IMG/VR virus record: IMGVR_UViG_3300045988_151230
Origin: a virus
Taxonomy: Duplodnaviria; Heunggongvirae; Uroviricota; Caudoviricetes
DNA length: 64,000 nt
Reading direction: 5' to 3' (one strand)
Below, one piece after another: positions 23,660 through 52,777 of this stretch (its first letter is position 1; each line of letters opens with the position of its first letter). Both the position numbers and the translations under genes were made by a program. The notes under the pieces are model-generated. The model ran no database searches. It saw only the letters and a program-made list of their open reading frames with translations, and was not told where the DNA came from.

Positions 23660-23732
23660 GTATCACCAAATAAAGTGGGCCACTTAATATAGTGGCCCAT
23701 GTTAATAGATAAGCACTTACCTATCAATGAAA

Positions 23733-42200: not shown

Positions 42201-42758
42201 GAATGGGGTAGGGTGCGGATAAACCACACTATAGAAGTTGTCTTTCCCGCCCGCTGTAATCAGTGAGCTTATGATTTTTGCAAAATCGTTGCGTTGGAAC
42301 ACGCTACCGATGTCGGAAGTGAGCAGGATGATGTTGCCTTTGGCATATGTAGAAACCAACTGTTCGAGCGAGAGACGCGGTACAAAGTAGAACTGTTCTC
42401 GTGTGTTGGCCACCGTCATTAGTTCGCAGATGTCGCGATATCCTTGCTCATTTTTAATTAGAGCGGTAAACGAGTAGTTACGTCCCCGCTCTAATGATTC
42501 CATACATCTCATAGATTCTTTAGCAAGTTTAGCCCGGTGCTCGTATGTGGGATCATCAACAATGTTTAGTTTCACACCACAAATAACCGCCATGTCGTCA
42601 CCAGCGGCACGTTGTAGTGGAATAACGCTCGCAATATTCATGCTATCTGCTGAAATTACAGCGGTGTAGCCAGCTTCTCTGGCAATCTTCACCGCGTTTT
42701 CTGCTTTTAGAGCCGACTCCCCAAGTGAGAAGTCAGTTCGAACCATCAGTGCCTTCAT
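39240..42758 (-). CDS. dnaE: DNA polymerase III alpha-like replicative polymerase (DnaE family)
   Basis: 1172 aa; N-terminal PHP domain; catalytic GPGRGSSAGSLVAWCIGITNVDP...LLFERFINPERLDLPDADLDF. Confidence 0.9.
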   Translation of the reverse strand: MKALMVRTDFSLGESALKAENAVKIAREAGYTAVISADSMNIASVIPLQRAAGDDMAVICGVKLNIVDDPTYEHRAKLAKESMRCMESLERGRNYSFTALIKNEQGYRDICELMTVANTREQFYFVPRLSLEQLVSTYAKGNIILLTSDIGSVFQRNDFAKIISSLITAGGKDNFYSVVYPHPTPFYDQINVRAMKVASALKIEPVAFYPAYYESIDDADIKDIAHMVTNNIKIDQPHRLRIPHQRDNAINGRRHLLEALKAFSVRMDVPVTAAMASTTQDSIIDACTWRWHELPPALPKMADDEPATLMKLAVAGLRKRLTTKEFGYTPPASENRVYVERLKYEMDTLTRLGFCGYFLMVRDLMNHSRETGIPVGPGRGSSAGSLVAWCIGITNVDPIRHGLLFERFINPERLDLPDADLDFSQARRHEVIEYLNERYGEDYVAGIPNFTYLGAASALRDTARIYGVESADMAVSKELKNVEDDSLPLEELREQLASLDKYATKYPDAFNAACKLQSLMRGFGRHAAGMIVAGVPLTERTPVERRGDARCIAFDKRYCEAMGLIKLDVLGLATLDLLDSAKRYIKENTGEDINLDAISLEDRKVLDGFAAGYTQGVFQLESGPMRKLLKDLGGGIEPMSFKTVVATTALFRPGPIQSGMLDDYVSVAKGFMTPESLHPVLDELTAETNGVILYQEQTMNATRLLAGFTMAEADGVRKAIGKKDMEKMKSMGEKFIVQAQAGWIDVELEDGTTQRIHRAEHFKCEDGTLKTVEEALEHGAKLPINAVRVTVSHPGLSEMKAKEIWTAFEKNGAYQFNKSHSVAYSLISYQSMWLKTHYPAEFFAAALTILGEDKHQGLVKDALTYGIRVLPPDVNVSSNRIEIRTLEDGSQVLYAPFSAVKGCSENGCQAIMRAREKVGGKFESLAQFEEAVEKRACNSRVRESLQKVGAFASIEPGSLPATDPERLRDQAELMGNLVIDAVKASRPFEMNPKRSAEINVLMTRMAAEMGLGDELIRPSIGIKPKIMIILDNANGNDARTGYFMENGYDDFKAKLLTAGDLRMGDLYVTGVCKKVKDKEKDYTKDEIGQFTDFIREEINLVRPTYVLTCGSRATALFNNKNKPSDLVGRKEYLPDLDVTVFYGFNPNILYFRPEEGERLEAILADVAETIKS

Positions 42759-46476: not shown

Positions 46477-46689
46477 TTAACAGATTCTGACGGCTAAAGA
46501 CCCGGAGCCGATATTGAGAAGCGTGAAGCGTTTGTTGTTAAGTTCGAATATAAAGCCAGTTGTGTCATTCACACCAACCTGAATCTGCTCATTCGGTAGA
46601 TCGGTGAGGATGTCAGCTACACACTCATCAGCTAATTTCTGTACGTGTCCGATCTCAAGAGCGATTAGGCTGGAAATAGTGGTGTTCAT
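46477..46689 (-). CDS. hypothetical small protein
   Basis: 70-aa ORF. Confidence 0.35.
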   Translation of the reverse strand: MNTTISSLIALEIGHVQKLADECVADILTDLPNEQIQVGVNDTTGFIFELNNKRFTLLNIGSGSLAVRIC

Positions 46690-46939
46690 TCAATCAATCC
46701 ATTCTAACTTATACTATGGTAAGGAATACTACTAAAATTTATATCAATACTGAATACATTCATATCATATGCAAGTTAATTTTCTTACCTGTTTTGGGCT
46801 AATTTTTCTCCGTGCAATGGCCTTTAACCGGTCTTTTAAGTGCCTATCGAAAAAATGATAATAGCTTTACAACCCTAACCTTTGATGTAATATCGGTAAG
46901 CACTTACCAGAGAGAATTGAACGCGCAAAGGTTGTAACA

Positions 46940-47326
46940 ATGTCTGACAACAAGATTGAATTTATAGAAAGTCGCTATGCTGCTTTTATCGCAGGGCTGA
47001 TTGAATCCTCACCTATGAGTCAGGCCCAAATAGCCAGACTTATTGGTTATAAAAATGCCAACAACCTTTCTTTAATTAAAAGTGGCAAAATTCCTTTGCC
47101 TATCGATAAGGTTCGTCCGTTGGCGCTGGCGCTGGGTATTGAGCCAAGTCGTCTTATGATGATGGTGCTGGAAGAACGCCAACCTGAACTCGCAGCATTT
47201 TTATACAAAGAAGGCACCGCTCCTCTTAACGAGGACGAAAAACAGGTTCTTGCTGCATATAACGAGCGATTCGGTAAAGAGAAAGGCGCATCACAAAAGG
47301 TTGTTGAGGCCATAAAGTCTCTATGA
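46940..47326 (+). CDS. helix-turn-helix DNA-binding protein, candidate regulator
   Basis: MSQAQIARLIGYKNANNLSLIKSG helix-turn-helix-like segment; candidate promoter TTTACA-16 bp-TAATAT with a GGTAAGcacTTACC palindrome upstream. Confidence 0.5.
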   Translation: MSDNKIEFIESRYAAFIAGLIESSPMSQAQIARLIGYKNANNLSLIKSGKIPLPIDKVRPLALALGIEPSRLMMMVLEERQPELAAFLYKEGTAPLNEDEKQVLAAYNERFGKEKGASQKVVEAIKSL

Positions 47327-48424
47327 AAAATTTACACGAATAAGCTCTGTTGATAGACGATCTCCCTTGAATTTGTGGTCAATTTCGTCTAAATCCGGTT
47401 GCTCTACGATTGATGCGATGTACGTCGAGAAACTTTCTAAGGCGTCTCGCATCTCGTCCATATAATCGTGCCGGTCGTAGACTCGATCTATCCCCTCAAG
47501 ACTGTGGTTCATGATTTTGCGTGATACCTCCTGGCTTATGCCTAATGCTGGGAAGTAACTACGCGCAGTACGGCGCAAGTCTCGGGGTGTAAATGGCTCA
47601 AGCTCCATCAGTTCTGGTCGTTCCAGGATACGACGTAATGCCTGGGCTATTGCCACTTTAGACATAGGAAGGTCTTTCCCGATTTTTTTATTCGAAGGCA
47701 CGAGCCACTGGCTGCCTTTACCGTATTCGAACAACTCTTCAATACATGTGCGCATTAATGTGCTTAAAGGCAGCGAATGCTCACGGGCAGATTTGTTCCT
47801 CTTGCCTTGATTCCAAACCCCACGCTTAAGATTGAACTCACTTTTTTTAGCCCGCAGTACTTCGTCAGGTCGTCTTGCGGATACAAGACACAGCCTGGCC
47901 GCCCATTTTGTACCAGCGCACACATTGAAGTAGTCCCATATATTCCAGAACACCCATACCTCTGCGTCGGTCAGCTTCCGCTCGCGAGGTGTGGGCTTTG
48001 CGCCACCGGCAACTTTGTTTAGTGACATATCGTTTAACGGTGACACGTCTATCATCCCCTGGAAGGCGCACCAGCTAAGGAACTGCTTCATCAGAGAGAA
48101 AACGCGGCGGCCCATAACAATTTTGCCATCCAGTATTAGTGGGTTGACCAGTTGGTTCACCATGAACCTATTAATGTCACTTACTTTTACATCGGCAATG
48201 TGCGGCAAAACATGTATCAAAATACAATGAACAGCGATCTCTGGCCGACGTCTTGTTATCAGCAGAGATAAGCGAGTGAATAACATGAATGCGTCCGAGA
48301 ATCTCATGTCATTGCTGACCTGCGAGATCATAACGGCCTGCATTTGAGATGCTCTTTCGAGATACTCAATCGCCTCTTTTGAGGTGTTCTCCGCAGCGCG
48401 TGCTCTGTCAAAGCTATTTTTCAT
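47321..48424 (-). CDS. tyrosine site-specific recombinase / integrase
   Basis: C-terminal catalytic region with R (LRRTARS), H (MNHS) and Y (YDRHDY). Confidence 0.8.
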   Translation of the reverse strand: MKNSFDRARAAENTSKEAIEYLERASQMQAVMISQVSNDMRFSDAFMLFTRLSLLITRRRPEIAVHCILIHVLPHIADVKVSDINRFMVNQLVNPLILDGKIVMGRRVFSLMKQFLSWCAFQGMIDVSPLNDMSLNKVAGGAKPTPRERKLTDAEVWVFWNIWDYFNVCAGTKWAARLCLVSARRPDEVLRAKKSEFNLKRGVWNQGKRNKSAREHSLPLSTLMRTCIEELFEYGKGSQWLVPSNKKIGKDLPMSKVAIAQALRRILERPELMELEPFTPRDLRRTARSYFPALGISQEVSRKIMNHSLEGIDRVYDRHDYMDEMRDALESFSTYIASIVEQPDLDEIDHKFKGDRLSTELIRVNFS

Positions 48425-48451
48425 ATGACAATCACCGAGTTACGCCGATTC

Positions 48452-48470
48452 ACTGTATAAGTAAACAGTA
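48452..48470. promoter_or_regulatory. LexA-box-like palindrome ACTGTATAAGTAAACAGTA
   Basis: CTGT-N8-ACAG with AT-rich spacer, 28 bp upstream of the recombinase start. Confidence 0.4.
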
Positions 48471-48522
48471 TATTAGGCATAGATTCTTATAGGATCAAGA
48501 GTAAAAGTAACTCATTTTCAGT

Positions 48523-48555
48523 AATGATTCCATACATAGTAGGTATGGAATCATT
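48523..48555. repeat. lox-like site: 13-bp perfect inverted arms AATGATTCCATAC / GTATGGAATCATT around a 7-bp spacer
   Basis: Same 13-7-13 geometry as a Cre/lox-type site, about 100 bp upstream of the recombinase; single arms recur at 51542 and 52555. Confidence 0.45.
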
Positions 48556-48634
48556 TAGACGTTGTTTTTTGAATTTTAAGGGAAACAGGAGTGAGTTTGG
48601 TGGGAATAAAAACGGCTCTTGTGAGCCGTTTAAA

Positions 48635-48883: not shown

Positions 48884-49047
48884 TTCACCTCGTGCAACTG
48901 CTGTTCATTAACGATGATTGTGCCAATTTCGCAGTAGTGGATACATGGTTTTGACTTCAGTGCCTGATGAGCTGCGCGACGCGCCTGTTTACGTTTGTTT
49001 CCCATATTGAGTCCTTTTAAGTGAATAATGAAAGAACTATACCGACA

Positions 49048-49075
49048 AATAATAGGTAAGTCATTACCTATTATT
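49048..49075. repeat. AT-rich palindrome AATAATAGGTAA-gtca-TTACCTATTATT
   Basis: 12-bp perfect inverted arms in the intergenic region. Confidence 0.45.
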
Positions 49076-49117
49076 TGTGCATTATCCCTCTACATAGTAG
49101 AGGGATATCGTCATGAC

Positions 49118-50796: not shown

Positions 50797-50883
50797 TGGC
50801 GGAGAGTAATGGAATCGAACCATCATCGCTTGCGCAATGGGACGGTTTTCAAGACCGCTTGAGCACCATGCTCCCTACTCTCC
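50797..50883 (-). tRNA. tRNA-Ser (anticodon UGA), class II with long variable arm
   Basis: GGAGAGT/ACTCTCC acceptor stem, anticodon loop CTTGAAA, T-loop TTCGATT, encoded CCA. Confidence 0.8.
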
Positions 50884-51100
50884 AATTGTTGTGGTTACCG
50901 GTACTGATCTCCGGCTTAGCGACCCCGGCTACTGACTGCATTGCAGTGTGTGAACTCGCCTCGTGTGTCGCTGGGGCATTTCTTTCCGCGCATCAGTCTG
51001 CGCATCAACCACAACGAAAAGAGCACTGTATGACGTTTGCACGGACTTACGCTTAAAACAGGGCAGTCTCGGCGGTTTTCAATGCTCTTTCCTGTTGTGT

Positions 51101-51176
51101 TGGTGCCGGTTAACGGACTCGAACCGCTGACATCCTGCTTACAAGGCAGGCGCTCTACCAACTGAGCTAAACCGGC
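51101..51176 (-). tRNA. tRNA-Thr (anticodon UGU)
   Basis: GCCGGTT/AACCGGC acceptor stem, D-arm GCTCAGTTGGTAGAGC, anticodon loop CTTGTAA, encoded CCA. Confidence 0.85.
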
Positions 51177-51180
51177 AATT

Positions 51181-51267
51181 TGGTGGGGAGTGATGGAGTC
51201 GAACCACCCGAGTCGCAATGACAGTAGATTTACAGTCTACACCGCTACCTCTACGGACTAACTCCCC
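51181..51267 (-). tRNA. tRNA-Tyr (anticodon GUA), class II
   Basis: GGGGAGT/ACTCCCC acceptor stem, anticodon loop CTGTAAA, long variable arm, T-loop TTCGACT, encoded CCA. Confidence 0.8.
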
Positions 51268-51272
51268 TAAAT

Positions 51273-51347
51273 TGGCGATGGTGGGTGGATTCGAACCACC
51301 GACCAGTTGGTTAACAGCCAACTGCTCTACCGCTGAGCTACACCATC
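51273..51347 (-). tRNA. tRNA-Asn (anticodon GUU)
   Basis: GATGGTG/CACCATC acceptor stem, anticodon loop CTGTTAA, T-arm GGTGGTTCGAATCCACC, encoded CCA. Confidence 0.85.
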
Positions 51348-51896
51348 AATTCAGCACTGCCAGTATTTATTACTCAACAGTGCCAATCGCGACGGTTTAG
51401 TTTCTGCCAGGAAACGCACCGCTACTTGCACTTTTCGTTAGTGCCAGACGCTTTCGACTTCGCTCAATAGTAGAAGGCAAAATCTTTAAGTAGATGATGT
51501 TTCTGAGGACAGCACCTACTTTGTAATTTATACAATGTGATGTATGGAATCATTTGTTGTGAAAACAGGCACCAATGGCAACAGTGGTTAAACCTACACA
51601 ACAATCCCGTCTTCACAACGTTGAGGCCACTACTCCGATTGAATGTTTGCCCAACATGTTACATATCAACGCTCGCCGGTATCTCTGTGAATAGAACCTT
51701 AGAATTGATAAAAATGTAATGGCCTCAACGCTGTGTGCTGGCTAACCATACCAGCCGGGCTACGTCGCCGCTTTTTAACCCAGTATAAACGACATAATTG
51801 AACAAAATGACGTAACAGGATGGGCGGTCAGTGGCTAAGAATCCGGGAGTCATATGGAGTTGAAAATATACCAACCGCCCATTCTGTTACTTCATC

Positions 51897-51920
51897 GGAG
51901 GGAACATGAATGTTCCCTCC
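51897..51920. repeat. 24-bp perfect palindrome GGAGGGAACAT-ga-ATGTTCCCTCC
   Basis: 11-bp arms with a 2-nt centre, in the ORF-free region beside the tRNA cluster. Confidence 0.45.
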
Positions 51921-52125
51921 TGCGTTCTGCAATCACACTCGCTCAGTGTGTCCCATTTCGGTAACGAGGCTGGAAACTGACCTCGCTGGTGTTTGGCTTA
52001 TTAGGCTACTGCCAGATAGACTTCTTCGTTTGCACTTGTATTTAAGTTCAAACAGTCGCGTCTCAACGAAAACAAAGTCATCTTATACACAAAAGATAAG
52101 TAAGTAAATACTTATCAATATGTTT

Positions 52126-52416
52126 TTATTCGGTTGTGACTTTTTTGATCAAGGCCACTCTACGACTAGGTGTTCTTGTAATGGTGGCAGTGAATCGTTT
52201 CGCTTGGATAGTAATGGTTTCGTTCTCCTTAAGTTGCCCGTAGCGAGTTTCCACTAGGGTGCCAAGACGCCACAGACCATCATCGATACGTTTATGACTA
52301 GCAAATTTAATCAGCAACAGTTTTACGACTAACTGACCTACGTAAAAGGCGAATGCGACTCCGGCCGCTAAGAAATAGGTGGCCAACCACCATTCCCAAG
52401 AAGTTAAATTGCTCAT
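52126..52416 (-). CDS. small membrane protein
   Basis: 96-aa ORF with N-terminal TM segment WWLATYFLAAGVAFAFYVGQLVV. Confidence 0.45.
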   Translation of the reverse strand: MSNLTSWEWWLATYFLAAGVAFAFYVGQLVVKLLLIKFASHKRIDDGLWRLGTLVETRYGQLKENETITIQAKRFTATITRTPSRRVALIKKVTTE

Positions 52417-52561
52417 TTTTTCACCTTTGTTTCATGAACTACCCGATACACACGCTTTCCGATGCACAGTGTTTTGGTTTTAAGTTCCTGCTTAATTAAA
52501 TCACGACAGATGCCGAAGCCGATAAGGAAGCCACCCATAAAAGCTAATGAGATGTATGGAA

Positions 52562-52777
52562 TCATTTTAACACTCCTGATTCTACTAATTGCTGTAGCAA
52601 TACTTTCCCTTTATCAGTTAACTGGTAGTTGGCCGAACACCACGTTTCAGAAACGTTTGCAACCAACCCTAAACGCTCTAACTTAGCTCGCGTTTTAGGC
52701 TTCCAGTACTCAGGGAACTCCGGCCACTTACTGATTTCATGAAGCGTTTCCTTCTCCCGTTTACTTAATACGATCAT
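52562..52777 (-). CDS. hypothetical small protein
   Basis: 71-aa ORF; flanked by further sub-60-aa hydrophobic ORFs at about 52417-52565 and 52777-52935. Confidence 0.4.
   Translation of the reverse strand: MIVLSKREKETLHEISKWPEFPEYWKPKTRAKLERLGLVANVSETWCSANYQLTDKGKVLLQQLVESGVLK

Follow-up and report, generated by a model that had tools for sequence, protein, structure and literature searches.

The DNA analysed here is a stretch of 64,000 nucleotides (the window, to whose positions all coordinates refer unless a relative is named) from the IMG/VR record IMGVR_UViG_3300045988_151230, a virus of the class Caudoviricetes. Sequence comparison with relatives identifies it as part of a phage-plasmid of about 108 kb of the SSU5/pHCM2/pMT1 type, and our subject is a tyrosine recombinase gene of this element, together with the DNA that adjoins it. 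The gene, an open reading frame (ORF) for 367 amino acids at 47321–48424 on the minus strand, is annotated as an 'integrase' in all records and is referred to below as int. A gene for a helix-turn-helix (HTH) regulator (46940–47326, plus strand) converges on it, and the two overlap tail to tail by 6 base pairs (bp). Upstream of int is a palindrome, the putative core recombination site (48523–48555), which is made up of the arm AATGATTCCATAC (48523–48535), the spacer ATAGTAG (48536–48542) and the arm GTATGGAATCATT (48543–48555); the arms are perfect and the 7 bp spacer is asymmetric. It lies about 100 bp upstream of the gene and 24 bp upstream of the −35 element of a putative σ70 promoter predicted from the sequence (48470–48498, minus strand; −35 TTGATC at 48493–48498, a 17 bp spacer and −10 TAATAT at 48470–48475). 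Directly downstream of the −10 element, and overlapping it by one nucleotide, is a LexA-type (SOS) box, the 20-mer CACTGTATAAGTAAACAGTA at 48451–48470 with CTGT at 48453–48456 and ACAG at 48465–48468; on the recombinase strand it reads TACTGTTTACTTATACAGTG. The initial annotation had listed the recombinase, the convergent overlapping HTH gene, the CTGT-N8-ACAG box and the perfect 13-7-13 palindrome, and inspection of the sequence and the ORF list finds all of them in place.

Phage-plasmids of the SSU5/pHCM2/pMT1 type are common in enterobacteria and include the F1-capsule plasmid of Yersinia pestis and pHCM2 of Salmonella Typhi. In nucleotide comparisons, the 2.5 kb around the recombinase is 99% identical to Escherichia phage CMS-2020a, 97% identical to Cyrano, which is the plasmid prophage pLF82 of E. 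coli LF82, and about 73% identical to Klebsiella phage-plasmids. The recombinase gene is present on 1079 PLSDB plasmids, among them Y. pestis pMT1 (86% identity) and S. Typhi pHCM2 (85%). The records of the relatives are circular, and the published account of Cyrano and LF82 gives a copy number of 5.5 per cell for Cyrano. One Y. pestis record with two copies of int was considered as a possible dimer or duplication; this was rejected, the record being a linear, over-long assembly of a circle of about 96 kb in which about 36 kb is repeated. This record, NZ_CP033700.1 (L155) of pMT1, also codes for a serine recombinase at 1751–2371, beside a ParAB/toxin–antitoxin region.

The recombinase comprises a core-binding and a catalytic domain and has no arm-binding domain. 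It matches the Pfam family Phage_integrase (PF00589) at E = 6.8e-10 and, weakly, PF22022, and its PHROG match is to an integrase (1e-46). The signature of tyrosine recombinases (R...K...H-x-x-R...H/W...Y, with the tyrosine as nucleophile) is present save for the histidine of HxxR, which is Arg281 in the window protein. In an alignment of 35 homologs, Arg185, Arg284 and Tyr316 are invariant and Lys211 and His307 are conserved in at least 90%. The AlphaFold model, with a predicted local distance difference test (pLDDT) score of 86.3, has a short helical N-terminus of 40 residues followed by two domains and is without a β arm-binding domain. The best Foldseek match is λ Int (PDB entry 1z1b; residues 75–356, E = 6e-7, template-modelling score 0.60), and the core of Tn1549 Int is also among the closest. 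Further matches are to Xer proteins, including XerH, and to IntI (PDB entry 2a3v), with a weaker match to Cre (E of about 0.02, about 10% identity); the recombinase-fold repressors MrpR (8a0a), YopR (8bj6) and SroF (9rgl) are found as well. A sequence search of the PDB with the recombinase returned no chain at E ≤ 1, Cre included. By sequence, there is a weak match to integrases of the P4 type (NCBIfam PRK09692, 2e-8). Family members down to 43% identity all come from Enterobacterales plasmids or phage-plasmids and have PF22022 and PF00589 without PF13356, the arm-binding domain that is carried by the next relatives, the P4-type proteins of 24–34% identity. The make-up of the protein, as modelled, is that predicted for a 'simple' two-domain enzyme acting on a minimal site.

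Eight close inverted repeats in the window have arms of 12 nucleotides or more, so the palindrome is not unique in itself; it is distinguished by the recurrence of its arms and by its conservation. A scan of GTDB genomes and of IMG/VR for GATTCCATAC-N7-GTATGGAATC gave seven enterobacterial loci in the former and 114 loci in the latter. At every enterobacterial locus that extends far enough (more than 120 loci), an int ortholog lies 43–99 bp from the palindrome, and each of the 139 loci checked has a palindrome upstream of int. Within the arms, the inner ten nucleotides stay unchanged as far down as 56% recombinase identity, and the outer three vary symmetrically (AAT/ATT, TGT/ACA or TTT/AAA). 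The spacer is fixed at 7 bp in more than 120 loci and takes at least 12 different sequences, which are exact reverse complements of one another in four lineage pairs (L002/L068, L016/L070, L023/L125 and L035/L072/L135). These are flips of the spacer in situ; between L002 and L068 both flanks are identical, and the orientation of the spacer with respect to the flanks is therefore unconstrained. Perfect inverted repeats are known to undergo such loop flips. The arrangement is thus that of a minimal recombination site, namely two inverted arms of 11–13 bp around an asymmetric spacer of 6–8 bp that is fixed in length and free in sequence. For the integrase of SSU5-type elements, the papers searched yielded no description of a site or a role, and a full-text search for the arm sequence returned unrelated primer matches only. 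The scan also gave three palindromes of the form GATTCCATAC-N7-GTATGGAATC in Amycolatopsis (L018, L020 and L021), which have a further symmetric extension and no recombinase homolog nearby; these are probably an unrelated operator.

More distant homologs separate the site from its surroundings. Recombinases of 41–49% identity are found on Pantoea, Rahnella and Erwinia plasmids of 135–613 kb, among unrelated neighbours that, in the regions examined, include neither an HTH gene nor phage genes. These megaplasmid homologs nevertheless carry a 13-7-13 palindrome 85–146 bp upstream, with the arms ATGACTCCAGAC and GTCTGGAGTCAT. The same second arm type is present in SSU5-like elements of Xenorhabdus and Providencia, in which the recombinase is 44–47% identical. 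The geometry is the same, the arms have changed symmetrically and the context is unrelated; the arm sequence therefore follows the lineage of the recombinase and not the genomic context. The proposal of the initial annotation that the palindrome is the site of this recombinase is supported by its position beside the gene at more than 120 loci and by the covariation of its arms with the recombinase lineage, and the palindrome would accordingly be bound by the enzyme encoded next to it.

Other roles for the palindrome were considered. It could be no recombination site at all, the palindrome and the single copies of its arm (described below) serving instead as operators for a recombinase-fold repressor or for the HTH protein, or the palindrome serving as a hairpin terminator or insulator. 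The occurrence of the motif as dispersed single copies is in keeping with this, as are the repressors MrpR, YopR and SroF among the fold matches, the short distance to the −35 element of int and the ease with which the palindrome folds as single-stranded DNA (−11.1 kcal/mol, z = −6.45). The catalytic residues, the tyrosine nucleophile among them, are retained across the family, however, unlike in MrpR and YopR. The palindrome is kept by int where the HTH gene is missing, and the conserved palindrome at the HTH promoter is a different one; on these last two grounds we also rejected the HTH protein, taken by itself, as the principal binder of the 13-mer. A pure hairpin would neither hold a 10-nucleotide arm invariant nor recur as unpaired single copies, and the nearby T-run, nine nucleotides from the stem, is atypical for an intrinsic terminator. 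We regard these operator or hairpin roles as distinctly improbable. A protelomerase (telRL) target was ruled out by the asymmetric spacer with its odd number of base pairs, by the circular replicons and by the 367-residue protein with its λ-Int-like fold. A replication terminus or origin was ruled out as well: there is no switch in GC skew at the palindrome, and repA is about 17 kb away.

The uniform annotation as 'integrase' and the P4-type enzymes among the closest sequence relatives raise the question of whether the palindrome is an attP core in an integration and excision module that allows chromosomal integration, as the initial annotation had entertained. Integration of pMT1 into the Y. 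pestis chromosome has also been reported. The distribution argues in the other direction. The gene and the site are carried by 252 of 5426 complete E. coli genomes, at 262 places, all of which are on plasmids and none of which is chromosomal; in the GTDB scan the full palindrome of the enterobacterial loci occurs on plasmid-like contigs only. The protein has no arm-binding domain, and a symmetric site that tolerates spacer flips contrasts with the oriented architecture of arm-type sites. Of the features of a λ- or P4-type attP system, the arm-binding domain and the integrated copies are lacking; arm-type repeats were not specifically searched for. Integration was thus not borne out, and we consider it highly improbable as the function of this module.

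The putative promoter of int agrees with the consensus at eight of 12 positions, which is below the threshold of nine of 12 in our promoter scan, and it is kept in Klebsiella, pMT1, pHCM2 and other relatives. CTGT-N8-ACAG occurs twice in the window against 0.9 occurrences expected; the box is not rare by count, and its reality therefore rests on position and conservation. It is present at 111 of the 132 loci in which int is at least 55% identical, where CTGT and ACAG do not vary and the inner eight nucleotides occur in more than 20 versions. The sequence at 48451–48470 thus combines the features of a gammaproteobacterial LexA operator: the CTGT-N8-ACAG pattern, an AT-rich centre, overlap with a promoter and conservation among orthologs. 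The other occurrence in the window (2014–2029) belongs to a canonical LexA box, TACTGTATACACATACAGTG (2012–2031), directly upstream of a gene for a UmuD/LexA-like S24 peptidase (1606–1995, minus strand) which is the ortholog of CYRAN_98.

The two genes with such a box can be compared in published RNA sequencing data for LF82, which cover five conditions: overnight culture in lysogeny broth (LB), medium for 1 and 6 h, and macrophages for 1 and 6 h. In this order, the log2 expression values of Cyrano int are 5.6, 7.9, 6.1, 8.9 and 10.3 and those of the Cyrano UmuD-like gene are 7.2, 9.7, 9.1, 11.3 and 12.2, so that the rank order of the conditions is identical for both. In macrophages, int is among the most induced genes of Cyrano. 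According to the LF82 paper, macrophages provoke an SOS response, and Cyrano is induced 39-fold by ciprofloxacin. Control of int by LexA, judged from its promoter region, fits both this co-induction and the conservation of the box.

Taken together, these observations are in our view best explained by a Cre/loxP-like multimer-resolution module under SOS control, a reading that we hold to be probable and that draws on analogy with P1. Resolution is the best candidate function because a low-copy plasmid of about 108 kb would be expected to have a resolution system and int is the sole candidate. A second tyrosine recombinase was looked for in the element of about 108 kb and none was found, which leaves int as the only site-specific recombinase detected; a homolog of the pMT1 serine recombinase was not found in the E. 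coli element, and the window and L140 contain no match to a dif/cer-like Xer site (up to two mismatches in the XerD arm and four in the XerC arm). In the proposed mechanism, two recombinase protomers would bind the two arms, sites on a plasmid multimer would synapse and strands would be exchanged across the asymmetric 7 bp spacer. Multimers arising from homologous recombination would in this way be returned to monomers, and the low-copy prophage-plasmid would be stably inherited. The same reaction could circularize terminally redundant infecting DNA. Expression of int would be low in the resting lysogen and would rise in the SOS response, a state in which RecA activity and the induction of the prophage favour multimers and concatemers. 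Binding, strand exchange at the spacer, the role in resolution and the binding of LexA are the steps that we infer. Of the roles offered in the initial annotation, dimer resolution or cyclization with possible SOS regulation, resolution thus stands as the option that fits best and cyclization as a possible additional one, while SOS regulation is supported by the conserved promoter box and by the co-induction.

A role in the lytic cycle would give the same enzyme a different emphasis: the recombinase might mainly circularize infecting DNA, or process the products of replication after SOS induction, instead of maintaining the plasmid. Cre/loxP of P1 is established to do both jobs. The LexA box ties the expression of int to induction, and both the strong rise of int in macrophages and the response of Cyrano to ciprofloxacin agree with such a role. 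Nonetheless, the same site geometry is found on Pantoea and Rahnella megaplasmids of 270–610 kb with no phage genes in the regions examined, and the gene and the site are retained by Y. pestis pMT1, which is not known to be an active phage. A purely or mainly lytic function therefore seems unlikely to us, and multimer resolution remains the interpretation that we carry forward.

The arm sequence also occurs outside the palindrome. There are five exact copies of the 13-mer in the window: the two arms and single copies at 51542 (plus strand), 52554 (plus strand) and 42493 (minus strand). The initial annotation had given the first of these singles correctly and the second as 52555, and had missed the third, which is inside dnaE. 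Five exact copies in 64 kb are far beyond chance. With up to two mismatches there are six matches against 1.95 expected, a number that none of 100 shuffles reached, and chance recurrence was ruled out by these counts together with the conservation described below. The closest relative's genome was searched for a further copy of the 13-mer over its remaining 44.5 kb, and none was found. The three singles share a 16-mer, GAT followed by GTATGGAATCATT, and are here called half-sites A, B and C. Half-site A (GATGTATGGAATCATT; 42493–42508, minus strand) lies inside dnaE, where it codes for C-M-E-S-L in a variable loop. Half-site B (GATGTATGGAATCATT; 51539–51554, plus strand) is non-coding and upstream of a transfer RNA (tRNA) cluster. 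Half-site C (GATGTATGGAATCATT; 52551–52566, plus strand) overlaps the stop/start junction of two minus-strand ORFs, 52562–52777 and 52413–52565, the product of the latter starting with 'MIPYI'. Among relatives, NGAT precedes 124 of 131 single copies, and the GAT extension was never seen beside arms within a palindrome.

The single copies occupy orthologous positions in elements of E. coli, Klebsiella, Salmonella, Yersinia, Enterobacter and Serratia; orthologs of half-site B are found in Klebsiella, pHCM2 and Enterobacter, and those of half-site C in Klebsiella, pMT1 and pHCM2. They covary with the palindrome, ending in ACA in all six cases in which the palindrome arms end in ACA and in none of 125 in other clades. 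The dnaE copy shows no synonymous change across five lineages while the flanking residues vary, and in clades without the motif the amino-acid sequence of the loop is not conserved; selection at this position therefore acts on the DNA. The initial annotation had suggested looking for recombination junctions at the single copies in related genomes. Their orthologous positions, in part within coding sequence, give them instead the appearance of selected half-sites. Decayed relics or junction scars were ruled out by the 13 bases kept across genera, by the covariation with the arms and by the lack of synonymous drift in dnaE. When read as AATGATTCCATACATC, all 131 singles point toward the palindrome, from both sides, although this polarity rests on only some three to four independent positions and would arise by chance with a probability of roughly one in four to one in eight. 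The direction of transcription does not account for it, since every neighbouring gene is on the minus strand. Neither the elements of the GACTCCAGAC arm type nor the megaplasmids have singles, which are therefore accessory and restricted to one clade. No conserved hairpin was found near them, the scan gave no match to σ70 promoters at the singles and there is no change in skew at these positions.

Several observations concern the surroundings of these copies. Many relatives (L003 at 6486, L008–L011 at 8607) have GATGTATGGAATCA(A/G)G within the recombinase gene itself, coding for D-V-W-N-Q around the invariant Trp204, where the window has GGGGTTTGGAATCAAGG; this in-gene motif is oriented by the same rule as the singles but is probably a coincidence of coding. 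Half-site B lies in a stretch of about 780 nucleotides without a convincing ORF (51350–52125, minus strand), upstream of a tRNA-Asn/Tyr/Thr/Ser cluster (50797–51347). An 11-2-11 palindrome is present in the same ORF-poor stretch at 51897–51920, and an Rfam scan of the region from 42 to 54 kb gave tRNAs only.

The palindrome also marks a boundary. Colinear blocks of 8–17 kb with 97–98% identity end at 48555–48557 in four relatives and in many E. coli plasmids, and over the relatives as a whole colinearity breaks at 48555–48573. To the right of the palindrome there follows a variable zone of 2–7 kb (48556 to about 51100), after which similarity returns around the tRNA genes; the far boundary of this island is diffuse and lies within conserved genes such as grx and the tRNAs. 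In the window the island is empty and the palindrome abuts the glutaredoxin terminator. In Cyrano it holds CYRAN_43, expressed 723 times above background, in PhiR41_1 and pDETEC87 two different chaperone–usher fimbrial operons, in other relatives RelE or YafO toxin systems (toxin–antitoxin pairs), and in Y. pestis pMT1 the operon caf1R-caf1M-caf1A-caf1 for the F1 capsule. The cargo consists of whole operons with their own regulators. Island coordinates in relatives are 1600–7870 in L010 (pMT1), 8154–14000 in L002 and 18917–24800 in L152. The flank on the cargo side (48556–48580) was compared over about 60 site variants and the upstream sequences of distant relatives. It contains a loosely conserved T-run/GAA element, TTTTTTGAATTTT at 48565–48577, which reads CAGAwTTyAAAAAA on the other strand in relatives and which, as far as its sequence indicates, may be an accessory or promoter element.

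This boundary could mean that the palindrome is chiefly a platform for gene exchange, through which cargo enters or is swapped by recombinase-mediated fusion of plasmids, followed by homologous resolution elsewhere, in a loosely integron-like and SOS-induced manner. The sharp end of colinearity and the varied operons beyond it are what such a platform would leave, and where int alleles are 99–100% identical, one and the same site is bordered by at least eight different flanks on the cargo side. LexA control of an integron integrase, reportedly described by Guerin et al. in 2009, would be a trait common to the recombinase here. Every cargo variant has its own version of CAGAwTTyAAAAAA, 10–25 nucleotides from the arm, a pattern that is expected if plasmids exchange their cargo sides at the site. 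A conserved anchor of 33 bp beside unconstrained DNA looks alike, however, and gives the same sharp edge without site-specific exchange. No cassette flanked by two palindromes and no attC-like array was found, and the far boundary of the island is diffuse. The scanned loci contain neither two palindromes nor a repeat of the site on the cargo side, and capture of cassettes in the manner of an integron was rejected in the lack of a second site at any of them. We judge exchange as the chief function of the palindrome to be improbable and return to multimer resolution as the favoured role.

Several points weigh against that role and should be set beside the evidence in its favour. The second histidine of the catalytic pocket, read from the sequence, is an arginine (Arg281) where most family members have histidine. 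The case for resolution is argued mainly by exclusion and by analogy, and pMT1 also codes for a serine recombinase, so the tyrosine recombinase may not be the resolvase in some relatives. As for the SOS part, the box is missing in the clade below 55% identity and in about half of the clade at 55–62%; the LF82 RNA sequencing is possibly not strand-specific, and many Cyrano genes rise in macrophages. We know of no well-known precedent for a resolvase under LexA repression, while SOS control is known for integron integrases, and the enzyme may serve an induction-specific function instead. Finally, a pure resolution role does not account for the conserved half-sites or for the cargo island at the palindrome.

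A broader reading would take in these last features. Once LexA repression is lifted, the recombinase might also occupy the three half-sites, which point toward the core site from either side, over a region of about 10 kb that takes in the cargo island, int and the repressor gene as well as the beginning of the replication genes. It would organize or regulate this region through looping, roadblocks or control of dnaE and of the ligase/tRNA operon; at the same time it would make the palindrome a point at which cargo operons, such as those for the Y. pestis F1 capsule and for chaperone–usher fimbriae, pass between related plasmids. The module would then be a combined resolvase, regulator and exchange device under SOS control. 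We regard this as rather unlikely, and it is multimer resolution under SOS control that we retain as the working interpretation in what follows.

The HTH gene appears to stand apart from the recombination module. Its 128-residue product is XRE-like, with weak matches to HTH_19 and HTH_3 and a match to phrog_8 (6.6e-12). In all phage-plasmid relatives it converges with int, the two genes overlapping or being no more than 9 bp apart, but it is absent beside the megaplasmid homologs of int. The promoter and candidate operator of the gene lie at 46866–46908 (plus strand), where the promoter scan and the search for repeats gave TTTACA-16-TAATAT (46866–46893) and the palindrome GGTAAGCACTTACC (46895–46908), the latter immediately after the −10 element. 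GGTAAGCACTTACC is conserved in relatives whose HTH protein is 66–100% identical and is, from its sequence and position, a likelier operator for the HTH protein than the 13-mer is. The Cyrano ortholog, CYRAN_45, is annotated as a 'putative repressor' and is expressed ten times above background in the lysogen, as given in the published Cyrano/LF82 paper. The HTH gene is thus probably a prophage regulator or repressor and not a part of the recombination module, to which the initial annotation had joined it; its absence from the megaplasmids and its own candidate operator speak against that grouping. No terminator was found between the HTH and int genes, and transcription of int must therefore run antisense into the HTH gene; that this contributes to induction is speculation on our part.

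Copies of GGTAAGCACTTACC with one mismatch are present at 23708–23721 and 49055–49068, the second of them inside a perfect 15-4-15 palindrome (49045–49078). Divergent from the HTH gene, a conserved ORF of 70 amino acids (46477–46689, minus strand; phrog_2627, function unknown) heads the cobT/cobS/dnaE block. In Cyrano, no neighbour is more strongly induced in macrophages than its ortholog CYRAN_46, which goes from a log2 value of 4.3 to 10.8. At the other end of the window, the UmuD-like gene is adjoined by an ORF of 366 amino acids for an Mrp/ApbC-like P-loop ATPase (468–1568, plus strand), whose counterpart in Cyrano, CYRAN_99, is annotated as 'Septum site-determining protein' and is expressed in the lysogen.

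The definition of the site offers an explanation of how large low-copy elements of this type could stay monomeric, and it ties an enzyme of plasmid maintenance to the SOS response. The palindrome fixes the sharp boundary of an island whose cargo includes virulence and fitness operons, and the oriented half-sites, embedded in part in coding sequence, are a concrete oddity. For engineering, the family presents a natural lox-like set with two arm specificities (GATTCCATAC and GACTCCAGAC), at least 12 spacers of 7 bp and recombinases unrelated in sequence to Cre.

Comparison with known systems indicates several partial likenesses. The P4/CP4-57-type integrases (λ-like and heterobivalent) are closest by sequence (PRK09692, with PF22022 as central domain), and the closest fold is the λ Int core, but the window protein is without PF13356, the survey of complete E. 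coli genomes gave no integrated copy and the site is symmetric with a flippable spacer. ResD/rfsF of F, Rsd/crs of the Salmonella virulence plasmid and the host XerCD acting at cer and psi have the role proposed for int, which is to keep a large low-copy plasmid monomeric, with the site beside the gene. Xer sites have an 11-6/8-11 layout with two unlike arms and accessory sequences. IntI/attI of integrons resembles the present module in having a tyrosine recombinase gene with a LexA box, a site directly upstream and variable cargo beyond the site; it differs in that here there is one palindrome per locus, with no attC hairpin sites, cassette array or second site. TnpI/IRS of Tn4430 and Tn5401 and MrpR/YopR of SPβ are systems in which the motif of a recombinase or recombinase-fold protein occurs in a core site and as separate copies, with a regulatory role. 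The extra sites of such systems adjoin the core or lie at transposon ends, and MrpR and YopR are catalytically dead, whereas the present protein has kept its catalytic residues and its singles are 1–10 kb away, one of them in a gene.

The closest parallel is Cre/loxP of P1. Each belongs to a temperate phage that persists as a low-copy plasmid, each has a recombinase of two domains that lacks one for arm binding, and in both the site lies upstream of the gene and consists of two perfect 13 bp inverted arms around an asymmetric spacer; the roles, multimer resolution and perhaps cyclization, would be expected to be the same. The two systems differ in that the proteins have no detectable sequence relationship, the nearest relatives of the window protein by sequence being of the P4 type, in that the spacer is 7 bp here and 8 bp in loxP, and in the LexA box and the extra single half-sites found here. 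The recombinase module of these phage-plasmids, previously uncharacterized, is probably of the Cre/lox-like kind, and its features of note are the oriented half-sites and the cargo boundary.

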